Positions 179 through 43,258 of a stretch of 43,368 nt of DNA are shown piece by piece. Location of the stretch: the UHGV virus genome UHGV-1382693; one strand, 5' to 3'. This DNA comes from a virus. The notes under the pieces were generated by a model. It ran no database searches, had not been told where the DNA came from, and saw only the letters and a program-made list of their open reading frames with translations. The translations under genes were made by a program, and so were the position numbers. The stretch's first letter is position 1, and each line of letters opens with the position of its first letter.

Positions 179-1249
179 TCACATAATGAATTTTTCAAAG
201 TGTTTATTGATTTTTTTATTTTGCCGGACAGATTCCAGGTCAATCACATTTCTGTATACAGTTTTCATGATATTATCGCTGGCCCATCCTCCCCGCTGCA
301 ATATATATTGGTCTGGTACACCTATGGCGTGCATAATGGATGCAGCATAATGCCGGAGGTCGTGAAAGCGGAAATGCGGTACATCAATCTTTTTAAGCAC
401 CCGCCCAAATCTATGTGTGATATAATCCGGGTTCATATCAACCAGCTTTCCTTTTTTGCTAGATATCCGCTCAATTACAAATGCTGGCATTTCTACATCC
501 CGTGTGCTGTCATCCGTCTTTGGCTGCTTAATGTACCATTGATTGTCTGGCCCCTTTACCATATTGTCTCTTACGTGGATTATCCTTCCATCCACGTTTT
601 TATCAGTTAGGGCACTTATTTCTCCGCGCCTGAGTGGTCCAAAGGCTGCTAGTAAAACAGCTATTTCTAAATCAGTACCTTTGATTGTCTCCAGCAGCTT
701 TTTAATATCATTGTCATTGGGGCAATATAAGTCAGGACGTTTTTTCTGCGGCAGTTTAACTTTTAGAGTTAAATCCGGTGCAAACATCTCCAGGGATGCA
801 GATAATAGGCCATAGGCATTTCGGACTGTCTTTGGAGAGAGTTGTTTTGAAGCCAAATCACTTACCCATATCTGTACAGATGGATTAGTTAGTTCTGAGA
901 GCCGTTTACGCCCAAATGCTCCGCCGAAATACTGTCTTTGCATACCTGTGTACCCTCTAAGCGTGGAAGGGCTTAAAACGCCTTTCTTGACGTTTAAATA
1001 ACGTTCAATAGCTTGGTTCACTGTTATATCTTCGTCCTCGTCCTCATCCGGTTCATTGCATTGTTCTATGGGCTTATCTTTCATATCTAATTTCCATCGA
1101 GTAGCCATTTCCTTTGCTTCCTTGCGTGATGGAGCAACAAAGCTTTTGTAATGCCGCTTGCCTTTATCATCTGTATACAGATACACTTGCACTCGGACAT
1201 TTCCAGACGGCAGTACTCCTTTTTTCTTTTTCGGGGCTTTTGTGGTCAT
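179..1249 (-). CDS. int: Tyrosine recombinase / phage integrase
   Basis: C-terminal R...HxxR...Y catalytic region (HDLRHYAAS...GGWAS). N-terminal MTTKAPKKKKG..VQVYLY SAM-like arm. ATG at 1249 is preceded by GGAGG. The longer ORF in the track (to 1423) has no RBS. Confidence 0.9.
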   Translation of the reverse strand: MTTKAPKKKKGVLPSGNVRVQVYLYTDDKGKRHYKSFVAPSRKEAKEMATRWKLDMKDKPIEQCNEPDEDEDEDITVNQAIERYLNVKKGVLSPSTLRGYTGMQRQYFGGAFGRKRLSELTNPSVQIWVSDLASKQLSPKTVRNAYGLLSASLEMFAPDLTLKVKLPQKKRPDLYCPNDNDIKKLLETIKGTDLEIAVLLAAFGPLRRGEISALTDKNVDGRIIHVRDNMVKGPDNQWYIKQPKTDDSTRDVEMPAFVIERISSKKGKLVDMNPDYITHRFGRVLKKIDVPHFRFHDLRHYAASIMHAIGVPDQYILQRGGWASDNIMKTVYRNVIDLESVRQNKKINKHFEKFIM

Positions 1250-1412
1250 TTCTCTTTCCTCCTTAATTGATTTTCCTAAAAATAGGTATAAAAAATACAG
1301 CTCCGCAAATATCTTGCAAAGCCGCCCCGAAGATGGTACAATATAGGTGCGAATTATAGTGCATATCTTCGGGTATGTAGGCCGGTTCCTGTTGGCGCAG
1401 GGGCCGGTTTTT

Positions 1413-1940
1413 TTATATACCATGAAACATCTGTTGTACTTGGTCTAATGCATTGTTCATTTCTGCAACTGCATTTTTATATGCCATGTATCTCCAGTAA
1501 ATGATTAAAGCATAAATGGCTATCACCATAATTGTAAAAATTATTCTATCAGCCAAAGAACGCTTTTTATAACACCATAACAATGCAAGTCCAAAGGGAG
1601 CAAAACAAAAAAATGTGAGTAACCCTATAAAAATATTTTTTTTATAGAATGGGTCTTGGTTGGAATCATGTTCTATGATATCTAAATCAGGATATTTTTC
1701 TTGAATATAATCAATTGCTCTTTGTATTGGCTCGTTACTTTTTTTTGAGAATGTAAAGCGCTTGGTTTTTCCGTATTGAAAATAAAAATCTATGTATCCC
1801 CCTTCTGTGGTAGAACGAAATTCATATTCTATCTTTTCAATATCCTCATACTTTATCTTTGACTTATTTCCAAAGATATCTATGATATTAGCTTCATCTT
1901 TTCCGATGTAAAGTTTGGCCCAATCTCCTTTAATGCTCAT
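1413..1940 (-). CDS. Membrane protein with N-terminal PH-like domain, paralog A
   Basis: AAGGAG RBS. Its N-terminal 90 aa are paralogous to the next gene (MSIKG..K.LFIGK.E.NI..FG.K...KIEY.F...NEPI.RA.DYI...PDL). Two C-terminal TM helices. AT-rich. Confidence 0.7.
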   Translation of the reverse strand: MSIKGDWAKLYIGKDEANIIDIFGNKSKIKYEDIEKIEYEFRSTTEGGYIDFYFQYGKTKRFTFSKKSNEPIQRAIDYIQEKYPDLDIIEHDSNQDPFYKKNIFIGLLTFFCFAPFGLALLWCYKKRSLADRIIFTIMVIAIYALIIYWRYMAYKNAVAEMNNALDQVQQMFHGI

Positions 1941-4917: not shown

Positions 4918-5008
4918 ATTATCTCCTTTATTATGTACTCGGCGCAGCAACGCCTGTACTTAAATTATAAAGGAGTTGGGTAGGAATGACAAGATTAAAG
5001 GAGGAATC

Positions 5009-6157
5009 ATGGAAGAAATAATAAAATCGTATAAAGGTTTTAATAAGGATATGACCTGCAAAAATAAACAATATGAAGTGGGAAAGGATTACGAGGAAGA
5101 TAAAGCCGTTGCTTGTGAGTGCGGAATGCATGCATGCGAATACCCACTTGATTGTTTTAAATATTATCCACCATCAAAATCTGTGTATTATGAGGTAGAG
5201 CAGAGTGGAGACATAAGCAGACACGATGATGATAGTAAAATTGCATCAACAAAGATGCACATTGGTGCGCAGTTGAGTATTGCTGGAATTGTAAATGCGG
5301 CCATCAAATATACCAAGGAAAAGATTGAAACAACTTGTATAGAATCTAAGGCAGCAACAGCCGGGGACTACGGAGCAGCAACAGCCGGGTACTACGGAGT
5401 AGCAACAGCCGGGGACTACGGAGCAGCAACAGCCGGGGACTACGGAGCAACAACAGCCGGGTACCACGGAGTAGCAACAGCCGGGGACTACGGAGCAGCA
5501 ACAGCCTGGGACTACGGAGCAACAACAGCCGGGTACCACGGAGTAGCAACAGCCGGGGACTACGGAGCAGCAACAGCCGGGGACAGCGGAGCAGCAACAG
5601 CCGGGGACAGCGGAGCAGCAACAGCCGGGGACTACGGAGCAGCAACAGCCGGGAACTACGGAGTAGCAACAGCCGGGGACTACGGAGCAGCAACAGCCGG
5701 GTACCACGGAGTAGCAACAGCCGGGGACAGCGGAGCAGCAACAGCCTGGGACTGCGGAGCAACAACAGCCGGGGACTACGGAGCAGCAACAGCCGGGAAC
5801 TACGGAGTAGCAACAGCCGGGGACTGCGGAGCAGCAACAGCCGGGTACCACGGAGTAGCAACAGCCGGGGACTACGGAGCAGCAACAGCCTGGGACTGCG
5901 GAGCAGCAACAGCCGGGGACTACGGAGCAGCAACAAGTCGGGGAAAATCATCAACAGGCGAAAATGGATTATCTGTTGCAAGAGGAAATAGGGTAAAAAC
6001 AAAAGGAGGGCTAGGTTCAATTTTGGTTATTGCAGAAGAAGAACAAAATAGCTATAAAATTTCCAGCTGGAAAGCGGTAGTTGTTGATGGAGTAAACATC
6101 AAAGCAGATACATGGTACACGCTTAAAGATGGAGAACTCATAGAAGCGGAAGATTAG
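5009..6157 (+). CDS. Early protein with Cys-containing N-terminal domain, ~24 x 8-aa A-T-A-G-x-x-G-A repeats and a C-terminal domain
   Basis: AAGGAGG RBS before MEEIIKSYKGF. CxC...C..P..CF motif. The repeat block is encoded by a 24-bp tandem array. Confidence 0.8.
   Translation: MEEIIKSYKGFNKDMTCKNKQYEVGKDYEEDKAVACECGMHACEYPLDCFKYYPPSKSVYYEVEQSGDISRHDDDSKIASTKMHIGAQLSIAGIVNAAIKYTKEKIETTCIESKAATAGDYGAATAGYYGVATAGDYGAATAGDYGATTAGYHGVATAGDYGAATAWDYGATTAGYHGVATAGDYGAATAGDSGAATAGDSGAATAGDYGAATAGNYGVATAGDYGAATAGYHGVATAGDSGAATAWDCGATTAGDYGAATAGNYGVATAGDCGAATAGYHGVATAGDYGAATAWDCGAATAGDYGAATSRGKSSTGENGLSVARGNRVKTKGGLGSILVIAEEEQNSYKISSWKAVVVDGVNIKADTWYTLKDGELIEAED
5351..5935. repeat. 24-bp tandem repeat array (gcagcaacagccggggactacgga, ~24 copies), in frame within the CDS
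   Basis: Near-perfect units. Variation is confined to codon 1 (A/T), codon 5 (D/Y/N/W), codon 6 (Y/S/H/C) and codon 8 (A/V). Both complementary frames are also open, as expected for repeats. Confidence 0.95.
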
Positions 6158-20484: not shown

Positions 20485-21717
20485 ATGTTAAGCCCTGATT
20501 ACCTTGCAAGAATCGCAGAAGGAAGCGAAGAAATAGCCTCACAACTCCATACATACATTATTCGTCAGATAATAGACCGCATGATGATACGCATAGGCCG
20601 CGGCGATGATTGCCTGCTCACCTCATCTGACCGATGGCGCATACATGTATTGCAGGACGCAGGGTATCTGCTGGAGGATATAACAGCAGAGTTATCCAAG
20701 TACACCAAGAGGCAGGAGAAAGAGATTAAAGCGGCTATGGAGGAGGCCGGGATAAAAGCTCTGGAATACGACCACAGAATATACGAGGCCGCCGGCCTGT
20801 CTCCTATGCCCCTGACGCAATCCCCGGCCCTTATTCGGCTGATGGAACGCAATTACCTGGCAACATTAGGGGAATGGAAAAACTACACTAGGACAACCGC
20901 GCAATCTGCTCAAAGATTATTTATTAACGAGTGCGATATGGCCTATAACAAAGTTATGAGTGGAGCAACATCTTACACACAAGCAGTTAAAGAGGCCGTA
21001 GAAAATGTGGCCAGTGGGGGTATTACACTTGTTCAATATAGAAGTAAAAATACTGGAGATATAAGAAATGACACGATAGAGACAGCTACAGCACGAGCGG
21101 TACGGACTGGTATAGCACAGGCTACGGCGGAAATTACGCTGGCAAGAATGGTAGAAATGAAGTGGGAAGTTGTGCTGGTGTCGGCGCATGTGGGCGCAAG
21201 AAATGTTGGGGGGATACCAGAGAATCATGAACTTTGGCAAGGAAAATTCTACAGTCTCCCGCAATATGGACATAGATTCCCGGATTTCTATTACTCTACA
21301 GGATATGGAGATATTACTGGATTGTGCGGAGTAAATTGTAGGCATAGTTTTGGACCAGGTGATGGAGAAAATAATCCGTATGACCCAATAGACACAGAGG
21401 AAAATCGAAATCAGTACGAAAAAGAGCAACGCCAGCGAACGCTTGAACGCCGCATCCGCAAGACCAAGCGCGAGGTTATGGGCCTGCAAGAGGCCGTAGA
21501 GAAATGCCAGGACAAGGCGGCAAAGTTTGAGCTACAGCAGGCGCTTGACCGGAAATCCTACTTGCTATCCAAGCAGTATAAGGCATATAACGAGTTTTGT
21601 AAGGAGAATAACCTTAGAACTCAGTCAGAGAGATTACAGATTGCCCGCTGGAGCCGTGAACAGGCTGCAAAGGCCAGAGGGGCGGCGAGACGGTATCAAA
21701 ATGCGAAAGGGGAATGA
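20485..21717 (+). CDS. Head morphogenesis protein (SPP1 gp7 / Mu F-like minor capsid protein)
   Basis: Sits after the portal gene. MuF-like central region. C-terminal coiled coil. Confidence 0.7.
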   Translation: MLSPDYLARIAEGSEEIASQLHTYIIRQIIDRMMIRIGRGDDCLLTSSDRWRIHVLQDAGYLLEDITAELSKYTKRQEKEIKAAMEEAGIKALEYDHRIYEAAGLSPMPLTQSPALIRLMERNYLATLGEWKNYTRTTAQSAQRLFINECDMAYNKVMSGATSYTQAVKEAVENVASGGITLVQYRSKNTGDIRNDTIETATARAVRTGIAQATAEITLARMVEMKWEVVLVSAHVGARNVGGIPENHELWQGKFYSLPQYGHRFPDFYYSTGYGDITGLCGVNCRHSFGPGDGENNPYDPIDTEENRNQYEKEQRQRTLERRIRKTKREVMGLQEAVEKCQDKAAKFELQQALDRKSYLLSKQYKAYNEFCKENNLRTQSERLQIARWSREQAAKARGAARRYQNAKGE

Positions 21718-22103
21718 ATTTGAATAGATGGAAACCATATAACCCTAACCCAGTCCGTAATCAGCGTGTAGGCGACTGTGCCATACGTGCAATCTGCAAA
21801 GCAACCGGACAGGATTGGGAAACCGCCTTTGCTGGCGTTATGGTGGTGGCGTGCGAGAAATCAGATATGCCGTCAGCTAACAGCGTGTGGGGGACATATC
21901 TCAGGCGCAACGGGTTTCGGAGAAACATTATACCAGACGAATATCCAGAAGATTATACCGTGGAAGAATTTTCGGCAGACCACCAAAACGGAGTATTTGT
22001 TCTTGGGCTTGATGGTCATGTGGTAACGGTTGTGGATGGATTTTACTGGGACACATGGGACAGCGGTCAAGAAATACCAATATACTACTGGGAAAGGCGA
22101 TAA
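21714..22103 (+). CDS. Papain-like (C39 / BtrH-like) cysteine-peptidase-fold protein
   Basis: GDCAIRAI carries the candidate catalytic Cys, and DGHVVTVVDG the downstream His/Asp. ATGA-coupled to MuF. Confidence 0.4.
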   Translation: MNLNRWKPYNPNPVRNQRVGDCAIRAICKATGQDWETAFAGVMVVACEKSDMPSANSVWGTYLRRNGFRRNIIPDEYPEDYTVEEFSADHQNGVFVLGLDGHVVTVVDGFYWDTWDSGQEIPIYYWERR

Positions 22104-22106
22104 TTT

Positions 22107-22400
22107 ATGGAAACATTAAACTCTATTATGGTTGTATGCGGTTGGCTTATTACTCTTGGAGGCGCAGGAGCCGTAATATACAAATTGTTGCATCCGGCAT
22201 TTAAGCTAAAAAATCGAGTGGATAAATTAGAAATAAATGTGGAAAATGATTATAAATCTATCAAAGAAATAAGAGATATGCAATCTCTTTTATGCCAAGG
22301 AATGATAGCATTAATTGATAATCGTATAACCGGTAACAACATAGAGGGTTTAAAAAAAACCAAAGAAGCTATGATAAAGCATTTGTCAGAAGGTATTTAA
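22107..22400 (+). CDS. Small membrane protein (N-terminal TM + coiled coil)
   Basis: TM segment IMVVCGWLITLGGAGAVIY. AT-rich. Confidence 0.55.
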   Translation: METLNSIMVVCGWLITLGGAGAVIYKLLHPAFKLKNRVDKLEINVENDYKSIKEIRDMQSLLCQGMIALIDNRITGNNIEGLKKTKEAMIKHLSEGI

Positions 22401-22411
22401 GGAGCGTTGCG

Positions 22412-22612
22412 TTGAAGGTATATGACTTTACAGTGCCAGAACTAAACTATTTTCGTACATATTGTAACTTTACGGATGAAGAACGGGCACTGTTTGAGTA
22501 CCGGGCCAAGAACTATCCTTTGGAGTATTGCGCTGAATTAATGAATGTAAGTGTATCCACAGCAAAGAGATTGAGCAGAAAAGTAAACAACAAAATAATC
22601 CGATTATGTTGA
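22412..22612 (+). CDS. Sigma-70 region-4-only HTH protein
   Basis: LEYCAELMNVSVSTAKRLSRKVNNKI looks like region 4.2. AAGGAG RBS. TTG start. Confidence 0.6.
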   Translation: MKVYDFTVPELNYFRTYCNFTDEERALFEYRAKNYPLEYCAELMNVSVSTAKRLSRKVNNKIIRLC

Positions 22613-22636
22613 TACTTGCGTGATACTTTTATAAGT

Positions 22637-22666
22637 CTTTGACGACCTGTCAAGGGCTTATTTTTT
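22637..22666 (+). terminator. Intrinsic terminator
   Basis: CTTTGAC-gacct-GTCAAGG stem followed by gcttatttttta. Confidence 0.55.
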
Positions 22667-22704
22667 ATGGGATAATTGGATTATAAAAGAACGGAGGGGA
22701 TATA

Positions 22705-23175
22705 ATGCCGCAACCATTTATCAATCCAAACTATCTGAATACATATCCAAACGCATATCCTTATCAGCCACAGATGCAACCACCTATGGACCGATTGCAG
22801 CAGCTACAGGCACCATACCAAATGTCGCAACAGACGCAGGTTTCACAGGTCCCGCAGACCAACCAGGGAATATTATGGGTGCAGGGTGAAGCCGGGGCAA
22901 AGTCGTATTTAGTAGCGCCAAGCACATCCATATTACTGATGGATAGCGAAAATGAGTACTTTTATATTAAAACAACAGATGCAGCAGGTATGCCAACACT
23001 CCGCACTTTTGAATATAAAGAGATTGTTAATGGACGGAAAAAGGAATCTACATCGGCTGAAAATCTGGATGAAAAGTATGTTACCAGAAATGAGTATCAG
23101 GATTTAAAGGCAAAATATGATGAATTATATGGACTTTTAGAAACCAGTACAGCACCAACAGGAAAGGGGAAGTAA
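22705..23175 (+). CDS. P/Q-rich N-terminal protein with conserved C-terminal domain
   Basis: GGAGGGG RBS. N-terminal PQPFINPNYLNTYPNAYPYQPQMQPP. Confidence 0.65.
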   Translation: MPQPFINPNYLNTYPNAYPYQPQMQPPMDRLQQLQAPYQMSQQTQVSQVPQTNQGILWVQGEAGAKSYLVAPSTSILLMDSENEYFYIKTTDAAGMPTLRTFEYKEIVNGRKKESTSAENLDEKYVTRNEYQDLKAKYDELYGLLETSTAPTGKGK

Positions 23176-23178
23176 TAT

Positions 23179-23436
23179 ATGAATCCATTATTTAACATGT
23201 TAGGTGGAATGGGTGGAGGTAGCCCAATGGGAGGAATGATTCCTGGGATGGGCGGAGGAAACAACCCCATGCAGATGATACAGAAATTTATGGAGTTTAA
23301 AAACAATTTCAAGGGAAACCCTCAAGAAGAAGTACAGAAGATGCTACAGTCCGGCCAGATAACTCAGCGGCAATTAGACCAGGCCCAGCAAATGGCCCGG
23401 CAGTTTCAGCAGATGCTTAATGGCATGAAAAAATAG
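23179..23436 (+). CDS. Gly/Met-rich small protein
   Basis: GGMGGGSPMGGMIPGMGGGNNPMQM. AAGGGG RBS. Confidence 0.6.
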   Translation: MNPLFNMLGGMGGGSPMGGMIPGMGGGNNPMQMIQKFMEFKNNFKGNPQEEVQKMLQSGQITQRQLDQAQQMARQFQQMLNGMKK

Positions 23437-23490
23437 TACATAAATCAATGCGCATGATTTTGTAAATATATTTTAAAGGAGTAGACAATT

Positions 23491-24207
23491 ATGGATTCAA
23501 GCTATAGTTTAGCAGACATTGCCGCCGCTACAGGAGGAACAAACCGCAACAATGATGGCTTTGGAGATGGCGGCGCATGGTGGATTATTATACTGTTCTT
23601 ATTTGTTTTCTGTGGCTGGGGCAATGGAAACGGCTTTGGAAACAATGGAGCAGGAGGTGCAGGATTGCAGGGATTAGCAACACGTGCAGACATCAATGAG
23701 GGATTTGCCCTCAACGGAATCGAAAATGGTATAAGGGGTATTCAGCAGGGCATTTGTGATAGCACGTATGCGCTGAACAACACCATTACCAGCGGTTTCA
23801 GCGGAGTGGACCGTAGCTTATGCCAGATGGGCTATCAGCTCCATGATTGCTGTTGCCAGACACAGCGCGCAATTGATGGTGTAAATTATAACCTGGCTAC
23901 ACAGTCATGCGATACCAGAAACACCATTCAGACCGCAACTAGGGATATTCTGGACAACAACAACAGCAATACAAGAGCTATTCTTGACTTCTTAACTCAG
24001 GATAAGATTTCTACCTTACAGGCGGAGAATCAAACCCTTAGATTCCAGGCAAGCCAGACTGCCCAGAACGGATTTATTGATGCAGTTGGTAACTCAATCG
24101 TTGCACAGCTTCGTCAGCCGCAGCCTGTACCGGCTTATACGGTTCCAGCGCCATATCCATATGCCTCTAACTGTGGTTGTGGATGCAATACTGGATGCGG
24201 GTGCTAA
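23491..24207 (+). CDS. Membrane protein with Gly-rich region and Cys-rich C-terminus
   Basis: AAAGGAG RBS. TM segment WWIIILFLFVFCGW flanked by G/N-rich sequence. Ends CGCGCNTGCGC. Confidence 0.7.
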   Translation: MDSSYSLADIAAATGGTNRNNDGFGDGGAWWIIILFLFVFCGWGNGNGFGNNGAGGAGLQGLATRADINEGFALNGIENGIRGIQQGICDSTYALNNTITSGFSGVDRSLCQMGYQLHDCCCQTQRAIDGVNYNLATQSCDTRNTIQTATRDILDNNNSNTRAILDFLTQDKISTLQAENQTLRFQASQTAQNGFIDAVGNSIVAQLRQPQPVPAYTVPAPYPYASNCGCGCNTGCGC

Positions 24208-24416
24208 TGAGAAACGAACAGTTTTACGATAATCTTGCTCTGTATGCAACTGCATTGCAAATGATAAATTTGCTTTTGATTGTTGGTGATGTGTCAAATA
24301 ATGATATTATGGAAGCATTGCAACAGGAGAATAAGGAATACATGGAAAAGATTATCGACCAAAACAACCGCATATTGCGTATCTTGTCCGAAAAGGACAT
24401 GTCTACTGAACAGTAG
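24207..24416 (+). CDS. Small hypothetical protein
   Basis: TAATG coupling. 69 aa. Confidence 0.45.
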   Translation: MRNEQFYDNLALYATALQMINLLLIVGDVSNNDIMEALQQENKEYMEKIIDQNNRILRILSEKDMSTEQ

Positions 24417-24478
24417 TATTACACACATGGAAGGGTAGGCATAAGCTTGCCCTTCTGTGCATATAAGGAGGATTTATT

Positions 24479-24877
24479 ATGGCAGATTTTGTAACTGCTG
24501 GGACACAGACTGTTGCAGTCAATGCAAGCGTTCTGTTTGCTGCAAACAGGATATATTCTTGCAATTGTCCAAACATAAGGCATGAGGCACTCTCTGGTAG
24601 GGTAGTTTTGCTTCCTGGCCTGTACCGCGTAGGATTTAACGGAAACTTTTCCGCAGCCGCAGCAGGTGACGTTATTTTTGAAGTACAGCAGGACGGCGAA
24701 GGCATTCCCGGTGCAAGAATTCAGAACACAGTTGCCGCCGGCGCAACAATCAATGGAGCGGCAACTGTAGAAGTAAGGGTGTGCAAACCATGTTGTGCTA
24801 CCCTATCAGTAAAAAACGTTGGAGCCACAGCAGCGGCAGTATCAGACGCTAACCTTGTTGTTAGCAGAATAGGTTAA
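24479..24877 (+). CDS. Ala/Gly/Val-rich beta-rich protein with Cys pairs (structural subunit-like)
   Basis: AAGGAGG RBS. SCNCPN near the N-terminus and CKPCC near the C-terminus. Confidence 0.7.
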   Translation: MADFVTAGTQTVAVNASVLFAANRIYSCNCPNIRHEALSGRVVLLPGLYRVGFNGNFSAAAAGDVIFEVQQDGEGIPGARIQNTVAAGATINGAATVEVRVCKPCCATLSVKNVGATAAAVSDANLVVSRIG

Positions 24878-24889
24878 GGGGGTAAGGCT

Positions 24890-25429
24890 ATGAGCTATAA
24901 GATGATGCAGAATATCCATGAAGAACTGGATAAGATTGCGGAAAAGGGCCTGAACACTAGCAACCTTGAAACCGCATACAAACTGATAGACATGTGGAAA
25001 GACATGGAGAATGTGGAGTACTGGAAGTGCAAAAAAGAGTACTACAATCAGGTAATGGACGAAATGGATGGCGGAGAATACAGCGAAGCGCGCCGCAAAC
25101 GCGACAGCATGGGACGTTATAGCCGTGCTGATGGAATGTCACAGGACTATGATAATGACAGCTCATATCGCGGCACACGCGGAAAACATTACGTCAGAGG
25201 ACACTACAGCCGTGCGACCGGTCCGGCCTATGATGACTACATGAATCAGAAGCAGAGCTACAGAAGTGGTGGAAAAGATGAGGATTGCAAGCGGCGTATG
25301 CTTGCGGCCTTAGAGGAACATATGGACGAACTAACCGAAGAGTTGGGAGAAATGTCAAAAGATGCTGATTGCCGCGAGGAACGGGAAACCATGAAAAGAT
25401 ATATCGAAAAGTTGCGTAATATGATGTAA
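24890..25429 (+). CDS. Charged helical protein, hypothetical
   Basis: AGGGGG RBS. Several Cys residues. Helical heptad-like N- and C-terminal regions. Confidence 0.65.
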   Translation: MSYKMMQNIHEELDKIAEKGLNTSNLETAYKLIDMWKDMENVEYWKCKKEYYNQVMDEMDGGEYSEARRKRDSMGRYSRADGMSQDYDNDSSYRGTRGKHYVRGHYSRATGPAYDDYMNQKQSYRSGGKDEDCKRRMLAALEEHMDELTEELGEMSKDADCREERETMKRYIEKLRNMM

Positions 25430-25462
25430 CAAAAAGCGGTGGGAATAATCTCACCGCTTTTT
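25430..25462. terminator. Bidirectional intrinsic terminator
   Basis: aaaaAGCGGTG-ggaataatct-CACCGCTttttt. 7-bp GC-rich stem flanked by A-run and T-run, sited between convergent operons. Confidence 0.8.
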
Positions 25463-25498
25463 GAAAATGTATTACCAAAAAAATTTGTTTTCTCTCCT

Positions 25499-25789
25499 TT
25501 AAATATGATTCCAATCTAACATAATATGGATTTCTTTTTCTTCATTATTGATTGCACATAGACAGGGTGATTCTTTCCCTTGAATCAGCTCGTTTGGTGT
25601 ATAAGTCCAACCCCACGGAGCCGTCAACACAATGCCGGCCTCTGTCTCGTCACATCCCCATCCTTCTGGCACTGTGTATTCTATTGGTTCGCTTTCTACT
25701 GCTGTTGGATGAGGATTGCCCTCAGTAAATACCGGATGTTTCTCAGCAGCCAAACATCCATAATTTATGTATCCTTTAAATGTTTTCAT
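25499..25789 (-). CDS. Hypothetical protein (last gene of reverse operon)
   Basis: AGGAGGAG RBS 7 nt upstream. 96 aa with WGxxE and WGW motifs. Confidence 0.6.
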   Translation of the reverse strand: MKTFKGYINYGCLAAEKHPVFTEGNPHPTAVESEPIEYTVPEGWGCDETEAGIVLTAPWGWTYTPNELIQGKESPCLCAINNEEKEIHIMLDWNHI

Positions 25790-25801
25790 TTTTTCTCCTC
25801 C

Positions 25802-26218
25802 TTACAATATGGTTTCATGTACCTCGCGCCCTGCCCGCACATTTTCCAGGTAATTGGGGTCTATGCTCTTTGGACAGTACTCATAATCGCTGTCCTCAAC
25901 TCCTATTTTTGCCATTTCGTCATGTATAATTTTAAAATAATCATCATGAGAAAAGTTGCGGGAATCAGAAAATACATTGTAATTTTCCGGTAACAATTTC
26001 TCATAGGCCAAATCTGAAAAATTATTTAAAAGTTTTTTCATCAGACATGGATGAATCAGTTCTTCCAATTGTCTGATGATTAATTCTTCGGCCCAGGGAG
26101 CCGGGTTCCGTTTCCCAGCCTCCCAATCCTCTATGGTCCTTGTTGGTATACCAAGGTAATCAGATAAATCAGATTGTGTCATGTTGGTTTTCGTACGGTA
26201 CTCTTTAATTCTGTTCAT
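25802..26218 (-). CDS. XRE-family HTH regulator with C-terminal domain
   Basis: MTQSDLSDYLGIPTRTIEDWEAGKRNP HTH. AAGGAGG RBS before ATG 26218. Confidence 0.75.
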   Translation of the reverse strand: MNRIKEYRTKTNMTQSDLSDYLGIPTRTIEDWEAGKRNPAPWAEELIIRQLEELIHPCLMKKLLNNFSDLAYEKLLPENYNVFSDSRNFSHDDYFKIIHDEMAKIGVEDSDYEYCPKSIDPNYLENVRAGREVHETIL

Positions 26219-26228
26219 AACGACCTCC

Positions 26229-26540
26229 TTATTTAACATGTTGTATGATGTATTTGGCATCTGTCATTTTTTCTAACTGACCGATAAGGCTTTCAATTCC
26301 GGCCGTGTAACTCTGCGCATCCATCTTACCCCTGGACATCATTATTCCGGCCATCTCGTCTGTCTTAAAAACCTTCTGGACCAGAATATCTTTTGCATAT
26401 GCCACCTGTTTCTCAGTTCCGGTCATTTCCTGGGTAAACATAAAAGCAATGATTTTATGGCAGTCGGCCCGGTCTACCAGGATATTATATCCGTTCAGCT
26501 CGTTTCTCATTTCCTTTGTATTCTCTGCTCGTCTCATCAT
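26229..26540 (-). CDS. Hypothetical protein (first gene of reverse operon)
   Basis: 103 aa. RBS-like AAGGATGGGGG. Upstream promoter with operator. Confidence 0.55.
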   Translation of the reverse strand: MMRRAENTKEMRNELNGYNILVDRADCHKIIAFMFTQEMTGTEKQVAYAKDILVQKVFKTDEMAGIMMSRGKMDAQSYTAGIESLIGQLEKMTDAKYIIQHVK

Positions 26541-26574
26541 TTTTTATTTCCCCCATCCTTTATCTTATGTATTT

Positions 26575-26604
26575 ATTTTACCACGCATTGCGTGGCGTGT
26601 CAAG
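26575..26604 (-). promoter_or_regulatory. Promoter of reverse operon with palindromic operator in the spacer
   Basis: On the - strand: TTGACA(26603-26598)-17 nt-TAAAAT(26580-26575). The spacer holds CCACGCA-T-TGCGTGG (26581-26595). Confidence 0.6.
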
Positions 26605-26685
26605 GGGTAATATTAAAATGTGGGGACGATTATTTTTTGCGAATAAGTTAAAATGAGAGTAGGAATAAACAGAAAGGACTAAAGC

Positions 26686-26871
26686 ATGGTAAAAAACGGT
26701 TGGGTATACTGCCCTATATGTAACAATAAGACCAGGACAAAAATTCGGCCTGATACAGTAGCGAAAAACCTTCCGGTATTTTGCCCTGTATGCAAGAATA
26801 CATCCATAATGAATATTGCAAAAGGAATAGCAAGTGATATGGAAAATGGCGGTTTATCACCTGCCACATAA
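26686..26871 (+). CDS. Com-like Cys4 zinc-ribbon protein
   Basis: CPICNNK...17 aa...CPVCKNTSIM parallels the phage Mu Com zinc ribbon. Confidence 0.5.
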   Translation: MVKNGWVYCPICNNKTRTKIRPDTVAKNLPVFCPVCKNTSIMNIAKGIASDMENGGLSPAT

Positions 26872-26874
26872 TAA

Positions 26875-26940
26875 TTAGAGCCAGACGCCAGACGCAGAGC
26901 CAAACAGATTACAGCAATGTAGTTTGTTTGGCTTTTTCTT
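26875..26940 (+). terminator. Terminator-like hairpin carrying a conserved 26-nt motif (copy 1)
   Basis: TAGAGCCAGACGCCAGACGCAGAGCC then AGCCAAACA...TGTTTGGCT stem plus tttttctt. Confidence 0.5.
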
Positions 26941-27139
26941 ATATTTGACCTCCCTCCTATAGCACATGTCCTTAAAAGAAACAGGTTCTAGCGCATAGCG
27001 TGAACAGCCTGGAGGTTGAAAAGCGGATGCAATTTCCGGCATGTGCGTTTTTGGACAAGTCAAGTCCTACAAAATGGCAACCGTTGGTGGACGGTTACAC
27101 ACCTACAAATAACCTAATAACGGAAAAGGAGAATCATCA

Positions 27140-27757
27140 ATGAAAACCGAAGAATTAAAAGCGCAGGGATTGACAGAGGAACAGATATCTTTTGTCATGG
27201 CTGAAAATGGAAAAGACCTTAAAAAGTTGCAGAAAGAAAATGACAATCTGACATCCGAACGGGATACCTGGAAAGAAAAAGCAGAAGCAGCAGAAACAAC
27301 GCTGAAAGGCTTTGAAGGGGTTGACCTTGAGACGATGCAGAAAGAACTGTCTGACTGGAAACAAAAGGCAGCAGATGCAGAAAAGAATGCCCAGGAACAG
27401 CTCTATGAGCGTGATTTTTCGGACGCTCTGAAAACGGAATTTGAGGGTATTAAGTTTTCTAGCGAAGCGGCTAAGCGTGCAATTATGGCAGAAGTCAAGG
27501 CAGCCGGATTAAAACTTAAAGATGGTAAAATCCTGGGGCTGAATGACCTTTTGTCCCAAATGAAAGAAAAGGACGCTTCGGCATTTATTGATGATGCGCA
27601 GCAACAGGAACAGCAGAACATGGCGAGATTTACGGCGCCGATAAAAGGAACGACCGGAGGAGCGCTGACAAAATCAGATTTTAAGGGTATGAGCCTGGAT
27701 GCAAAAATTGAATTAAAACAGAAAAATCCAGAACTTTACAACAATTTGAAAGGATAA
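27140..27757 (+). CDS. Scaffolding protein (Phage_GP20-like)
   Basis: MKTEELKAQGLTEEQISFVMAENGKDLKKLQ. Helical, charged. Precedes the major capsid gene. Confidence 0.75.
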   Translation: MKTEELKAQGLTEEQISFVMAENGKDLKKLQKENDNLTSERDTWKEKAEAAETTLKGFEGVDLETMQKELSDWKQKAADAEKNAQEQLYERDFSDALKTEFEGIKFSSEAAKRAIMAEVKAAGLKLKDGKILGLNDLLSQMKEKDASAFIDDAQQQEQQNMARFTAPIKGTTGGALTKSDFKGMSLDAKIELKQKNPELYNNLKG

Positions 27758-27763
27758 TGAATT

Positions 27764-28783
27764 ATGCCAAGAACAGGAACATTCGGAGGGTTTGCATTTG
27801 ACCCGGAAGTATTTGCTGATTACATGGCGGAGCAGCCTACATGGAGCAATGCAATTATCGCCTCGGGCATATTGCAGCAGGATAGCACCATTATGAACCT
27901 TATCGGGTCCGAAGGTAATGTTGCAACACTTCCATTTTACAAAGCAATGGACATTACGGATTACGAACCATATAACAATGATGGAAACACAAATAACACC
28001 CCGAAGGAGATTAGCGGCGGGAAGCAGACTACCATGCTGATACAGAGAATGATGGCATGGAAAGCACAGGATTTTACACAGGAGCTTACCGGGGCTGACC
28101 CGATGCAGCATATTGCAAACAGCGTTACCGATTACTATCGTCAGGTTTGGGAAGCAGAACTCATGAATATTGTAAACGCGGTCATGAAACTTGATACAAT
28201 TAAGGACCATGTTTATGACATTTCGCTTTCTGATGATAGTAGTGTTGCAGATGCCAATAAGATTGATGAAACAACCATGATTTATGCACAGCAGAAAGCA
28301 CTCGGCGACATGGCTAATGGGTTTGGAATTGCAATCATGAACTCACTCATATTTGCGAGATACCAGGCTATGGGGATGGTGAACTACAATAAGTACACAA
28401 TCCAGAATGCATTGACATCAGAAGTCAACCTCCCGACAATTAACGGTCTTATCCCGGTAGTGTCAGACCGATTTACGGTTGATACCAGTGGAGAAGTCCC
28501 GAAATACATAACTACAATCGTGGGACAGGGAGCTATACTGACAGCTGAAAAGACCAATTACAAGGAACCTTACTACGCGGATTATGACGCGGAGACTAAG
28601 GCTGGTATTGAAAAACTGTATACCAAGGAAGGGCGCGTGCTGCATCCGAACGGCTTCAATCTCAAGGTTGCAAGCATTGCTGGGGAATCCCCGACCAAGA
28701 CGGAACTTGGAAACAAGGCTAACTGGGAGCTTGCATACAAGGCAAAGAACATCCGTATCGGTCAGATTATTTCCAACGGATAA
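27764..28783 (+). CDS. Major capsid protein
   Basis: 339 aa after the scaffold. MPRTGTFGGFAFDPEVFADYM N-terminus. Confidence 0.8.
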   Translation: MPRTGTFGGFAFDPEVFADYMAEQPTWSNAIIASGILQQDSTIMNLIGSEGNVATLPFYKAMDITDYEPYNNDGNTNNTPKEISGGKQTTMLIQRMMAWKAQDFTQELTGADPMQHIANSVTDYYRQVWEAELMNIVNAVMKLDTIKDHVYDISLSDDSSVADANKIDETTMIYAQQKALGDMANGFGIAIMNSLIFARYQAMGMVNYNKYTIQNALTSEVNLPTINGLIPVVSDRFTVDTSGEVPKYITTIVGQGAILTAEKTNYKEPYYADYDAETKAGIEKLYTKEGRVLHPNGFNLKVASIAGESPTKTELGNKANWELAYKAKNIRIGQIISNG

Positions 28784-29010: not shown

Positions 29011-29505
29011 ATGGCATATGCAGACTATGAGTTTTACACAACAAAATACTACGGCAGTTCCATACCGGATTCCCAATCATTTGATAAGCAGGCAGAACGG
29101 GCAAGCGACTTCCTTGATAAAATAACATTTGACAGATTGGTTGACGGCCTCCCAGATAATGAACGAGTGCAAACCAAAATCAAGAAAGCCGTATGTGCAT
29201 TAGCTGATAAACTGTATGGTTTGGAACTGGCAGAAAAACAGGCGCTATCTGCCGCCGCGGGAAGTATAACCAGCGGGACCGGCGGCGCAACCACAGGCGT
29301 TATCACGTCAAAGTCATCCGGTTCCGAATCAATCAGCTATGCATCCCCGTCAGAAATAGCTAACGGAGCTAAAGCCTGGAGTGATATATATTCTGCGGCG
29401 GGGAATAAACAGGAAACAAATAATCCCCTGTATGATACCGCAAAGGTGTATCTGATGGGAGTAAAAGATAACGAAGGGACTCCACTTTTATATGCAGGAT
29501 TGTAA
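29011..29505 (+). CDS. Head-tail connector (gp6/gp15-like)
   Basis: DYEFYTTKYYGSSIPDSQSFDKQAERASDFLDKITFDRL. Confidence 0.7.
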   Translation: MAYADYEFYTTKYYGSSIPDSQSFDKQAERASDFLDKITFDRLVDGLPDNERVQTKIKKAVCALADKLYGLELAEKQALSAAAGSITSGTGGATTGVITSKSSGSESISYASPSEIANGAKAWSDIYSAAGNKQETNNPLYDTAKVYLMGVKDNEGTPLLYAGL

Positions 29506-29842
29506 AGTAAACATTCTGGGAACGGAATGGGAAGTTGTCCAGCGTGATGAAAAATCGGATGAAAACCTGGATGGGAAATTTAGGGATGGATATACCGATT
29601 TTTCTACACATATGATTGTGATTTGCAATAAAAAGGACGATTGCGAATTAAAGGACTATGAAGGATATAAAAATGCCATATTACGGCATGAACTCATCCA
29701 TGCGTTTTTGTATGAAAGCGGTCTGGATTCTTCAAGTTCAAATACATGCGGAGCGTGGGCAACTAATGAAGAAATGATTGACTGGTTCGCTATTCAGTCT
29801 CCGAAGATTTTCAAAGTATTCATGGAATTGGGTTTGCTCTGA
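29492..29842 (+). CDS. HExxH-motif small protein (putative metallopeptidase-like)
   Basis: RHELIHAFLYESG. Confidence 0.5.
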   Translation: MQDCKVNILGTEWEVVQRDEKSDENLDGKFRDGYTDFSTHMIVICNKKDDCELKDYEGYKNAILRHELIHAFLYESGLDSSSSNTCGAWATNEEMIDWFAIQSPKIFKVFMELGLL

Positions 29843-29860
29843 TTCCAGAAAGGAAAAGAT

Positions 29861-30124
29861 ATGGACATTACAACATTGGGAACATGTGTGGCTATTGTGG
29901 CTCTGAGCTATGTGGTTGGTCTTGGATGCAAGGCTGCAAAGAAAATACCGGACGAATGGATTCCGGTTATTATGGCTGTTGTGGGTGGTGTTCTTGGCGC
30001 GCTTGGTATGGGAACTATACCAGACTTCCCGGCATCGGACTACATCACGGCCGTAGCAGTTGGAGCTATGTCTGGCCTTACGGCTACGGGAATTAACCAG
30101 ATGTATAAGCAGGCTAAGAAATGA
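29861..30124 (+). CDS. Holin-like small membrane protein (3 TM + basic C-tail)
   Basis: TM1 LGTCVAIVALSYVVGLGC, TM2 WIPVIMAVVGGVLGALGMG, TM3 ITAVAVGAMSGLTATGI, tail NQMYKQAKK. Confidence 0.55.
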   Translation: MDITTLGTCVAIVALSYVVGLGCKAAKKIPDEWIPVIMAVVGGVLGALGMGTIPDFPASDYITAVAVGAMSGLTATGINQMYKQAKK

Positions 30125-30762
30125 GTAACTACCGAAACCGCAGAAATTATGAAAATCTGGAGCGCCAGATATTTGACGGCGTGGGAAAATACGGAATACC
30201 GCAGATAGAACCAGTAACCTACGAGAAAGGCTGTGAATGGATTGGTTTCAACTATGCCAAGACTTGTAAAGAGCCTGAAAAGAAAGGTGTACATTTCTTC
30301 CTTGATGATTACCAATTCAATAGGTTATGGACGGATGTTGACCGATACATACCCATGTTACAAAAATTCCGTTATGTAATGTCTCCAGACTTTTCCACCT
30401 ACACAGACTTTCCAAAAGCTATCCAGATATACAATCATTATAGAAAACATTGGGTAGGCGCATATCTGCAAGAGGCAGGGATACAAGTTATTCCCACGAT
30501 TTCATGGAGTACGCCCGACAGCTTTGAATGGTGCTTTGACGGAGAGCCACAGGGTGGTGTTGTGGCGGTATCGTCTTTAGGCGTGATGAACAGCAAAGAA
30601 AAGAAAGAGTTGTTTCTGATAGGCTACGAGGAAATGGTACGGCGCATTTGCCCGGACACGATTATCTTTTATGGTTATGTGCCAGATGAGTGCATGGGGA
30701 ATATCGTGAGGGTACGAGCGTTTACAGAAAAGTTTAATGAGGTGTTGTGCAATGGGTGGTAG
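30121..30762 (+). CDS. Hypothetical 213-aa protein
   Basis: GVHFFLDDYQFNRLW...VMSPDFSTY...EWCFDG motif blocks. Confidence 0.55.
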   Translation: MSNYRNRRNYENLERQIFDGVGKYGIPQIEPVTYEKGCEWIGFNYAKTCKEPEKKGVHFFLDDYQFNRLWTDVDRYIPMLQKFRYVMSPDFSTYTDFPKAIQIYNHYRKHWVGAYLQEAGIQVIPTISWSTPDSFEWCFDGEPQGGVVAVSSLGVMNSKEKKELFLIGYEEMVRRICPDTIIFYGYVPDECMGNIVRVRAFTEKFNEVLCNGW

Positions 30763-31114
30763 AGGTGGGGCGAGTGGATTATCTGCTAAAAACCAGAAAA
30801 TTTCTTTCAAAGGATTGCCAACTTTAAAAGGTTCAGAAAAACAAGTTAAATGGGCCGAACAAATTAGAAATAATGCTATTGATACTATCAATAGAAATAT
30901 TGATTTAGCTAATGAAAGGATAAAGAAGTATCCAAGCGCTCAAAAAAAATATCAAAATGAAATTGAATCTTTGCAAGAAATAGGCAAACAACTGAAAGAA
31001 GTATTATTAAAAGTATCTAATGCTTCTCAAATTATTGAAAAGCGTCACATATTTGACTCGTCTAGAATATTGGATGAAGCGTCAAAAATCGAACAAAGAA
31101 AAAAGAAACGCTAA
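30752..31114 (+). CDS. AT-rich hypothetical protein (Gly-rich N-terminus then helical)
   Basis: MGGRGGASGLSAKNQ. Much lower GC than its neighbours. Confidence 0.5.
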   Translation: MGGRGGASGLSAKNQKISFKGLPTLKGSEKQVKWAEQIRNNAIDTINRNIDLANERIKKYPSAQKKYQNEIESLQEIGKQLKEVLLKVSNASQIIEKRHIFDSSRILDEASKIEQRKKKR

Positions 31115-42389: not shown

Positions 42390-42515
42390 ATGTATACAAC
42401 GTTAAAAAGATTATATAACAATGGTAAAGGTCCATTAACTATTGATGAGCTTAACCGGGCTGTATTACTTGGATGGATTACAGAGCAACAGAAGAACAGC
42501 ATAATTGGAGGATGA
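42390..42515 (+). CDS. XkdX-family small protein
   Basis: MYTTLKRLYNNGKGPLTIDELNRAVLLGWITEQQKNSI matches the XkdX pattern. GGAGGTG RBS. Confidence 0.6.
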   Translation: MYTTLKRLYNNGKGPLTIDELNRAVLLGWITEQQKNSIIGG

Positions 42516-42517
42516 TT

Positions 42518-43258
42518 ATGAGAGATATCACATTGTGCCATCCACGTTTGCAGCTTTTAGCAGGTCAATTGGTGGATGAATGTAATAAACAGGGATTAAA
42601 AATTAAGATAGGCGAAACTCTGCGTACTGTAGCAGAGCAGGATGATTTATATGCCCAGGGCAGGACTAAACCGGGCAACATTGTAACTAATGCGCCCGGT
42701 AGCAGCTATAGCTCCTATCATCAGTGGGGGACTGCTTTTGATATCTTTCGCAATGATGGGACCGGAGCTTACAACGAATCTGATGGTTTTTTTAACCGTG
42801 TAGGTGCTATTGGTGTATCTCTTGGCCTGGAGTGGGGAGGAAATTGGAAATCCATTATGGACAAGCCACATTTTCAGCTTCCAGATTGGGGGAGCAGCAC
42901 ATCTGGAATTAAAAAGCTTTACCGTACACCGGATGAATTTATGAAAACCTGGGTGACAGAGGAACGCACTGGCTGGATTAAGGACAATAACGGCTGGTGG
43001 TACCGCAGACCAGATGGAACTTACCCGGCTAATAAGTGGTGTATCATAAATCACCATTGGTACTTATTTAATAAGGATGGTTATGCTTGCACGAGCTGGC
43101 ACCGCTGGAATGGCAGCACATGTGACCCGGTTGACGGTTCGGGAGATTGGTATTACTTTGACCCGACACCAAACGGACCGTTTGAGGGAGCCTGCTGGCA
43201 TAGTCAGGATAATGGGGCGCTGGAAATCTGGTACATAGAGGATTCTAACTCAATATAA
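42518..43258 (+). CDS. Endolysin: M15 (VanY-like) peptidase + C-terminal cell-wall-binding repeats
   Basis: SYHQWGTAFD and DKPHFQL resemble M15 zinc-peptidase motifs. The C-terminus carries GW..DNNGWWY-type repeats. GGAGG RBS. Confidence 0.8.
   Translation: MRDITLCHPRLQLLAGQLVDECNKQGLKIKIGETLRTVAEQDDLYAQGRTKPGNIVTNAPGSSYSSYHQWGTAFDIFRNDGTGAYNESDGFFNRVGAIGVSLGLEWGGNWKSIMDKPHFQLPDWGSSTSGIKKLYRTPDEFMKTWVTEERTGWIKDNNGWWYRRPDGTYPANKWCIINHHWYLFNKDGYACTSWHRWNGSTCDPVDGSGDWYYFDPTPNGPFEGACWHSQDNGALEIWYIEDSNSI

Follow-up and report, generated by a model that had tools for sequence, protein, structure and literature searches.

A portable gene module encoding a peptidase, a small regulator, a membrane-type protein, and a BclA-like knob within a composite accessory island in the late operon of a prophage of an Enterocloster-like gut Clostridium

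In the virus genome UHGV-1382693, a 43,368-nucleotide stretch referred to here as the window, 5.4 kb of DNA (positions 21714 to 27139) lies between the gene for a MuF-like head protein and that for the scaffolding protein. What is this DNA, and what could it do for the phage? A reading of the letters without database searches (the sequence-only reading) took it for one accessory cargo system, with its own regulators, promoters, and terminators, that is expressed independently of virion assembly, possibly from the lysogen. Here, we show that it is a real, composite accessory island inside the late operon with three components: a portable module (21714-25429), a nested XRE cassette (25471-26613), and a KTR zinc-ribbon gene with its own terminator. 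The window itself is a prophage, running from an integrase gene (179-1423, minus strand) through early genes and the terminase, portal, MuF, and tail genes to an endolysin gene (Peptidase_M15_4, 42473-43258). Proteins identical to those of the window occur on hundreds of human-gut metagenome contigs and in the NCBI isolate assembly GCA_000371545.1, and one shared protein carries the NCBI name [Clostridium] clostridioforme 90A6. The host phage is a temperate siphovirus-type prophage of an Enterocloster-like gut Clostridium.

The genes on either side lie outside the island. To the left is the MuF-like minor capsid/head morphogenesis gene (20485-21717, plus strand; Pfam Phage_min_cap2, E = 2.8e-71), and to the right the scaffolding protein gene (27140-27757, plus strand; Pfam Phage_scaffold, E = 1.7e-28), with the major capsid gene 3' of it (27764-28783). 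Nine plus-strand open reading frames (ORFs), three minus-strand ORFs, and one further plus-strand ORF fill the space between these flanks. Comparison with related phages bore out the accessory status, as MuF directly precedes scaffold in relatives. Blautia phage Montmirail, whose MuF, portal, and major capsid protein (MCP) are 53%, 58%, and 65% identical to those of the window, lacks the island and has the order MuF, 40-residue ORF, scaffold, MCP. Roseburia phage Jekyll likewise proceeds from MuF to scaffold to MCP without it. The GC content of the island (0.39 to 0.47) does not differ from that of the flanks (0.40 to 0.47), and the one compositional change is in the GC and AT skews, which flip over the minus-strand genes. 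When 20485-28783 was compared with phage records by megablast, just one 44-bp match was obtained.

Positions 21714-25429 hold a copy of a phage module that is both conserved and portable; in the window its genes run P, t, S, A, B, C, (x), D, E. Recurrence was assessed by jackhmmer with the window proteins as queries against the ORFs of 89 loci (9 phage records and 80 genome loci picked by their C protein, numbered with the prefix L). The order S P A B C D E recurs over these loci, constantly on the late-gene strand; the proteins detected, by falling frequency, were C (87 loci), A (78), E (62), S (55), B (46), D (45), and P (44), and B co-occurs with P. The reach of the module is best seen from C, its 238-residue signature protein (23491-24207, plus strand; phrog_16490, E = 1.8e-62). 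The C family holds at least 7,998 clusters at 90% identity and at least 1,892 representatives at 50% identity (E ≤ 1e-3), and approximately 185,000 species genomes contain 323 C loci, nearly all in gut or rumen Clostridia. The module is widespread and, in the literature searched (on prophage/exosporium/BclA, DUF7841, and Lachnospiraceae morons/cysteine-rich proteins), previously undescribed, as no description of it was found there. The PHROG family matched by each of P, A, B, C, D, and E is labelled "unknown function." Syntenic homologues in related phages, which the sequence-only reading had counted against an independent cargo system if they proved to be virion proteins, thus exist for P through E.

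The module moves as a unit among phages with different virion genes and lands at permissive late-operon sites. At approximately 18 other independent loci it lies between MuF and scaffold, as in the window, and at 25 or more (at least 25) it lies directly downstream of the holin/endolysin genes, often with an integrase gene after it. Structural matches to D in BFVD come from uncultured contigs labelled siphovirus, myovirus, and podovirus, and one locus (L094) combines the module with a P22-type portal. The minimal module is S-A-C. The peptidase slot holds P or an HExxH protein, at one end of the module or the other, in keeping with a peptidase that is integral to the unit; variants of the types A-C-D-E plus HExxH protein and A-C-D-E-P have the metallopeptidase-like protein or P at the 3' end. 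Minimal (S-)A-C modules, several of them beside an integrase gene, occur in L012, L014, L018 to L020, L029, L039, L045, L053, L055, L056, L060, L077, and L082; they are without peptidase, B, D, and E, and their C protein has a different N-terminus (FATGYALGxDS). The module is also present in Butyrivibrio phage Ceridwen, where P-A-B-C-D follow the endolysin gene (D match, hhalign probability of 100%, E = 5e-48). The Ceridwen gene at the E-like position is not an E homologue. Growth of Ceridwen has been observed only as lytic, on Butyrivibrio fibrisolvens, and its authors judged the phage virulent (PMC7372960).

On these grounds, we favor, at a probability of roughly 0.5, a main module that acts as a late-expressed, peptidase-matured, membrane-associated protein assembly, active during or after lytic growth and outside the core virion. 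Late lytic expression is indicated by the invariable co-orientation with the late genes, the overlap of the first gene with the MuF stop codon, and the presence in Ceridwen. The mechanism that we propose for this assembly is set out below together with the proteins that would carry out its steps.

The first gene, P (21714-22103, plus strand), shares the sequence ATGA (21714-21717) between its start codon and the MuF stop codon. It encodes a 129-residue papain-fold cysteine peptidase with Cys22, His102, and Asp113, which confirms the papain-like fold recognized by the sequence-only reading. Structures were predicted for P and D, and that of P has the papain-like fold and the succession of Cys, His, and Asp that characterize clan CA. 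Pfam and NCBIfam family models gave no match that would place P in C39, and no match to it was found by sequence in the PDB. Its top structural match is to the Peptidase C39 domains of the PCAT/AMS bacteriocin exporters (PDB 6mpz, 7s5j, and 5xe8), which are likewise minimal papain-like domains of approximately 130 residues with a similar order and spacing of Cys, His, and Asp (C22-H102-D113 in P). A co-encoded protein, C, has a leader-like N-terminal peptide that ends in G-G, with position −1 varying (G, N, or S) among homologues; a partner ABC transporter was found in none of the module loci examined. A 288-residue Peptidase_C39_2 neighbor in bajarodcaudo virus 5 was considered as a long form of P and ruled out (hhalign probability of 0.4%). 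P-family peptidases with 34 to 38% identity are also found on their own, with no other module genes, in large Bacillus siphoviruses (L107, 4983-5378, Bacillus phage Tsamsa gp15), a Geobacillus phage (L108, 4995-5384, GBK2_35), and Prevotella Lak megaphages.

P is followed by t (22107-22400, plus strand), the small transmembrane protein of the sequence-only reading, which has 97 residues, one N-terminal hydrophobic segment (Kyte-Doolittle 19-residue mean of 1.98), and a coiled-coil-like tail. Homologues of t were found in L008, L010, and L011, and most loci have a small protein with a single transmembrane segment just before S. Because the start of P overlaps the end of MuF and gaps of only 3 to 11 nt separate P, t, and S, the three should be made with the head genes. 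Late in infection, P, t, and S would thus be read together with these genes.

S (22412-22612, plus strand) is a 66-residue stand-alone helix-turn-helix (HTH) protein of the sigma-70 region 4/LuxR-GerE type and a candidate activator of the module promoter. The sigma-70 region 4 proposed earlier is clearly matched by the family (Sigma70_r4 in 17 of 22 members, best E = 5.7e-10) and weakly by the window protein alone (Sigma70_r4_2, E = 0.011). GerE/LuxR models are matched by 7 of the 22 members, and the family profile matches the DNA-binding domain of SdiA (E = 1e-6), GerE (1fse, E = 1.2e-6), and NarL (E of approximately 3e-6). As in regulators of the GerE, LuxR, and sigma-70 region 4 types, a single HTH of approximately 66 residues is combined with candidate binding repeats that adjoin a promoter. 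These are the direct repeats TGATACTT-N3-TGATACTT (22610-22628, plus strand), exact copies that overlap the S stop codon and have equivalents 3' of S in related loci. The window has no further copy of the pair, which leaves S without the obvious marks of a general late activator.

A predicted module promoter adjoins the repeats (22647-22676, plus strand), with a weak −35 element, CTGTCA, and an extended −10 element, TG-G-GATAAT (TATGGGATAAT). It overlaps a terminator-like hairpin with a T-run (22631-22661, plus strand; −15.5 kcal/mol, z = −5.0, z-scores here and below being from folding against shuffled controls). This hairpin contains the palindrome TTGAC-N5-GTCAA, and related loci keep it at the equivalent position and, in part, with the same sequence. 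The strict motif T(A/G)TGN(A/C/G)A(A/T/C)AAT was found in 15 of the 29 S-to-A regions examined, each time right after the T-run. The whole layout 3' of S, with one to four direct repeats, the TTGAC-N5-GTCAA hairpin, the T-run, and the extended −10 element, recurs among loci whose proteins are only approximately 50% identical. The poor −35 element and this conserved layout give the promoter an activator-dependent look, and we infer that S is the obvious candidate for the activator. S would bind the direct repeats at its own 3' end and turn on the promoter, giving a burst of A through E.

Among the products of that burst, C and A would form the core. C has a leader-like N-terminus (MDSSYSLADIAAATGG) and one hydrophobic segment (Kyte-Doolittle value of 1.78) between Gly-rich tracts. 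Its helical domain carries an invariant CCC plus C, and the protein also has a PxPVPAY motif and a GCGC at the C-terminus. In modules that contain a peptidase, its N-terminus (YSLADIAAATGG) shows the double-glycine leader pattern at positions −12, −11, −8, −7, −4, and −2. A double-glycine leader was first dropped as an explanation because the GG is not conserved, and was taken up again, as a weak lead, since P fits C39 folds best. A, the core partner of C (22705-23175, plus strand; phrog_21718, E = 3.3e-48), has 156 residues, with a P/Q/Y-rich N-terminus, a conserved beta-rich domain of approximately 60 residues, and a C-terminal coiled-coil-like segment. Neither A nor C matched Pfam or the PDB, and Pfam scans of the individual members of both families gave no consistent match.

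The remaining proteins would be added onto this core. B (23179-23436, plus strand; phrog_22984, E = 2.6e-20) has 85 residues, or 69 from a later start chosen by other gene callers, and comprises a conserved NPLFxxLGG at its N-terminus, a stretch rich in G and M, and a helical tail rich in Q and M. E (24890-25429, plus strand; phrog_28802, E = 5.9e-71) has 179 residues, with helical N- and C-terminal parts and an R/Y/S/G/D-rich disordered center; longer relatives of E, homologues in L090 and L096, carry DUF7841. B and E are conserved and matched no known family. The small ORF x between C and D (24177-24416, plus strand) is a variable member with homologues in eight loci; it is called in public assemblies, has 69 to 73 residues in other calls, and weakly matches DAM-like-phage2. 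No significant match came from PDB searches by sequence or profile with P, A, C, D, or E or with the two small proteins of the XRE cassette, and an NCBIfam scan of the island proteins gave no relevant match. The description of six low-complexity proteins in this region was overstated: it holds for strong segments of A, B, and C and for the center of E, whereas a 79-residue ORF is not of low complexity and D is globular.

As read from their sequences, A, B, D, E, and P lack an N-terminal hydrophobic signal. With export signals absent except in C and t, the layer would be built inside the cell. P would trim short conserved N-terminal peptides, the candidates being the double-glycine-leader-like start of C and the NPLFxxLGG start of B. 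C would join the membrane via its hydrophobic segment and, with A as the minimal pair, nucleate a Gly/Gln/Cys-rich layer, to which B, D, and E could be added. The role of such an assembly might be in egress, for example, or in protecting or dispersing progeny.

D (24479-24877, plus strand) is a 132-residue stand-alone jelly roll that resembles the C-terminal domain of BclA (TNF/C1q type) and contains an invariant CC pair. The BclA_C/TNF-C1q fold is that of the predicted structure, and the best structural matches are the Bacillus spore-surface proteins F-BclA, BclA, and ExsFA (PDB 1wck, 9h38, and 7r1m), from the exosporium and endospore appendages of the Bacillus cereus group. The Pfam model BclA_C was not matched by the window protein, and homologues that are 62 to 64% identical to it score 30 to 32 bits, below the cutoff of 38. 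A trimeric D is predicted from the analogy with BclA and TNF/C1q domains. BclA also offers an analogy for assembly without export, and it loses an N-terminal peptide by proteolysis upon attachment (PMC12357932).

These likenesses raise the question of whether the module is a spore-surface kit carried by the prophage. Its parts, a regulator like GerE, a knob like BclA, coat-like proteins rich in Cys, Gly, and Tyr, and a protease for maturation, would be made in the mother cell when lysogens sporulate and would remodel the coat or exosporium. GerE governs coat genes in the mother cell of Bacillus subtilis, and it is a stand-alone regulator of 74 residues, as S is stand-alone. Besides the matches of D and S, the missing export signals (a trait of coat proteins), the proteolytic processing of BclA, and the mostly clostridial hosts fit such a kit. 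The comparison breaks down at several points. There is no sign that S works with a sporulation sigma factor, and the GerE box is unlike the TGATACTT repeat. No sporulation-sigma promoters (sigma-E or sigma-K) were found upstream of S and A across the loci, and the module promoter is of the sigma-A extended −10 type, without the −10 element of sigma-E/sigma-K promoters (CATA...TA). BclA proper has a collagen-like GXY stalk and an exosporium leader, whereas D has no such repeats and no match to the NCBIfam exosporium leader; D is also unlike BclA and ExsFA in its own invariant CC pair, its place in a phage late operon, and hosts that include non-sporulating bacteria. The lytic phage Ceridwen grows on B. 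fibrisolvens, and module-bearing metagenome-assembled genomes (MAGs) are labelled Agathobacter, Subdoligranulum, and Butyricicoccus; none of these hosts is known as a spore former. Finally, TNF-like and LuxR-type folds are widespread. Taken together, a spore-surface function appears highly improbable.

The fold of D is also that of fiber tips and spikes, as in phage tail fibers, PRD1 P5, and BclA. The module could therefore be thought to encode optional virion parts, either a head/neck decoration or fiber tipped by a D trimer, or internal capsid proteins trimmed by P as the T4 prohead protease trims internal proteins; both kinds would join the particles late in infection. The module is embedded in the head-gene block beside MuF in approximately 18 loci, and P is translationally coupled to MuF; the late orientation and the presence in a lytic phage agree with this, and the peptidase together with the conserved short N-termini of B and C recalls capsid-targeting peptides. 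We nevertheless regard virion parts as doubtful. The module is shared by phages with unrelated head/portal genes and different morphotype labels, which is hard to square with a specific docking site on the virion, and co-inheritance with one capsid type is not seen. In most loci its place is downstream of the lysis genes and not in the structural block. Montmirail, whose head proteins are 53 to 65% identical, does not carry it. Near-identical phages, moreover, swap the capsid gene and keep the module, and C has a membrane-type segment. In L098, L101 to L103, and L105, the major capsid gene encodes a 390-residue protein with an S-l_SbsC_C domain, compared with the 339-residue Gp13-like protein of the window, and both the module and the scaffold gene are kept.

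Several observations weigh against the late, membrane-associated assembly that we favor. Late transcription beyond MuF meets three terminators and a convergent operon ahead of the scaffold and capsid genes, and might depend there on antitermination or on a promoter in 26936-27139. An integrase-adjacent position combined with an own promoter and terminators is the classic layout of lysogenic conversion, and BclA-like knobs are typical of virion fibers and spore surfaces. With regard to C, many homologues have N or S, in place of G, A, or S, at position −1 of the putative cleavage site; the relation between the type of its N-terminus and the presence of a peptidase is confounded by phylogeny; and its hydrophobic segment has no flanking positive charges and may not be a conventional membrane anchor. 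On balance, Ceridwen and the constant late-gene orientation favor a function in the lytic cycle and weaken both the lysogen-only and the spore-surface explanations. A bolder version of the late assembly, which we put forward as no better than tentative, is that P-S-A-B-C-D-E is an unrecognised class of phage-encoded self-assembling coat or appendage, in which a GerE-like activator would start a late burst of Gly/Gln/Cys-rich proteins that mature through a papain-like (or HExxH) peptidase and build an A plus C core bearing BclA-type knobs, predicted to be trimeric. If true, phages in infected gut Clostridia would make an exosporium-like "nap" or matrix, for example one that embeds, protects, or disperses their progeny, and this would be a mobile unit of thousands of phage lineages.

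The second component of the island has a different history. The nested cassette (25471-26613, minus strand) comprises 1,143 bp, is flanked by AAAATGT on both sides (25464-25470 and 26615-26621), and is a presence/absence polymorphism. DNA alignment shows it as a clean indel relative to a prophage of Enterocloster hominis (L010). It is also absent from L105, in which A and C are 98.7%, TerL 98.3%, and portal 97.9% identical to the window, and a Dorea MAG (L011) has an unrelated 343-residue minus-strand gene at the same site. The convergent three-gene XRE operon described earlier was recovered in full, as minus-strand ORFs of 103 residues (26229-26540), 152 residues (138 from a later start; 25802-26260), and 96 residues (25499-25789), the second of which encodes the XRE HTH protein (HTH_3, E = 8.6e-9, 35.8 bits against a cutoff of 23). 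None of the three ORFs is conserved with the module: homologues of the two small proteins are absent from the 89 loci, and the only matches to the XRE HTH protein are unrelated XRE genes elsewhere. The cassette was acquired separately and is nested at the 3' terminator of the module, a bidirectional intrinsic terminator between the module and the convergent genes (25430-25463, both strands; −23.0 kcal/mol on the plus strand and −19.6 kcal/mol on the minus strand, z = −9.1 and −7.6).

Transcription of the cassette would start from a promoter that agrees with the consensus at 11 of 12 positions (26575-26603, minus strand; TTGACA-17-TAAAAT, with an upstream TG). Its spacer is filled by the 15-bp palindrome CCACGCAtTGCGTGG (26581-26595, minus strand), a candidate XRE operator. 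Judged from these elements, the XRE cassette is the part of the island likely to be active in the prophage, under autorepression. What the sequence-only reading suggested for the whole island, expression uncoupled from virion assembly and possibly in the lysogen, fits only the cassette, with its opposite strand, strong sigma-70-type promoter, and operator. Own regulators, promoters, and terminators are indeed predicted for the island, with three strong hairpin and T-run structures where two intrinsic terminators had been counted. A single cargo system is not what they serve, given the conserved portable module, the independently inserted cassette, and the KTR gene.

In its strongest form, that earlier view makes the whole island lysogenic-conversion cargo (a moron), which uses its own promoters in the prophage to change the host phenotype, for example through superinfection exclusion or a surface change, and has no lytic role. 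Known morons such as HK97 gp15 and the lysin-integrase conversion modules of siphoviruses of low-GC Gram-positive bacteria are, like the island, extra genes between conserved late genes that are absent in relatives; a promoter and terminators bracket them, and they are tolerated at the same permissive sites. In keeping with this, the island has own promoter-like sites and three strong terminators, related phages are without it, the module elsewhere lies between the lysis genes and the integrase gene, which is the usual place of conversion genes in those siphoviruses, C has a membrane-type segment, as exclusion proteins do, and the XRE cassette fits closely. The main module departs from the pattern. 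A classic moron consists of one or two genes and is expressed in the prophage state, whereas the module has seven to nine genes, is one conserved unit across thousands of phages, and would be partly co-transcribed with head genes. It is co-oriented with the late genes at every locus, P begins inside the stop codon of MuF, S lies within the predicted late transcript, and the module promoter, with no good −35 element, looks activator dependent. A, B, D, and E, without export signals, cannot reach the cell surface alone. The different base composition expected of a moron is not seen, and Ceridwen, observed in lytic growth alone, carries the module. Conversion cargo is therefore an unlikely account of the island as a whole, and we retain late lytic expression for the main module, which is moron-like in its insertion pattern, yet far larger, conserved as a unit, and probably late.

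The third component is the KTR gene (26686-26871, plus strand), which encodes a 61-residue zinc-ribbon protein of the Cys_rich_KTR family (PF14205, E = 1.3e-18, 66.9 bits against a cutoff of 25.5). The zinc ribbon agrees with the sequence-only reading; the likeness to Com that it had seen comes down to a weak match to phrog_6417, "translational regulator" (E = 1.7e-4). A KTR gene after E is also present in L010, L011, L013, L016, and L105. An intrinsic terminator with an 18-pair stem follows it (26896-26935, plus strand; −24.4 kcal/mol, z = −7.0), and the 200-bp gap from there to the scaffold gene (26936-27139) contains no convincing sigma-70-type promoter.

Opposite-strand insertions were also observed at other module junctions. 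Between S and A there is a Cas7-like gene with two small genes, and between E and the KTR gene an HNH/AP2-like gene (L011, 11949-12980). Insertions at the B/C junction encode an endonuclease, NYN, or SocA_Panacea, or consist of unannotated minus-strand ORFs. The insertion sites at the S/A and B/C junctions are L104 8016-9483, L004 8175-8726, L094 6983-7831, and L095 6984-7831. Together with the XRE cassette, these insertions indicate that module junctions collect further cargo, which makes them useful places to search for new defence or addiction genes. PADLOC defence models had no match among 10 proteins of the island (P, t, S, A, B, C, D, E, and the 96- and 103-residue cassette proteins), with the XRE and KTR proteins outside the scan.

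Two further regions of the window stand out. Within the head-tail genes, 29492-31114 is a second accessory cluster, with a 116-residue HExxH protein (phrog_1233), a Phage_holin_5_2 holin approximately 12 kb from the endolysin gene, a DUF4417/nuclease-like protein, and a 125-residue ORF. Homologues of this HExxH protein close the A-C-D-E plus HExxH variants of the module. In the early region, a 393-residue ORF (4976-6157, plus strand) contains approximately 25 tandem octapeptides, ATAGDYGA, encoded by a repeat at 5351-5944 (24-bp unit, 89% matches); it forms a block with a GC content of 0.53 in a phage of approximately 0.40.

A multigene unit with its own regulator and protease that is kept across unrelated virions must give a selectable function in the gut. 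Cultured material is at hand for its study, in the Enterocloster isolate assembly that carries the window prophage and in the isolated Butyrivibrio phage Ceridwen. Knowing what the module does would annotate thousands of "hypothetical" genes at once, and it may reveal a new late step in the life cycle of phages of Gram-positive anaerobes.

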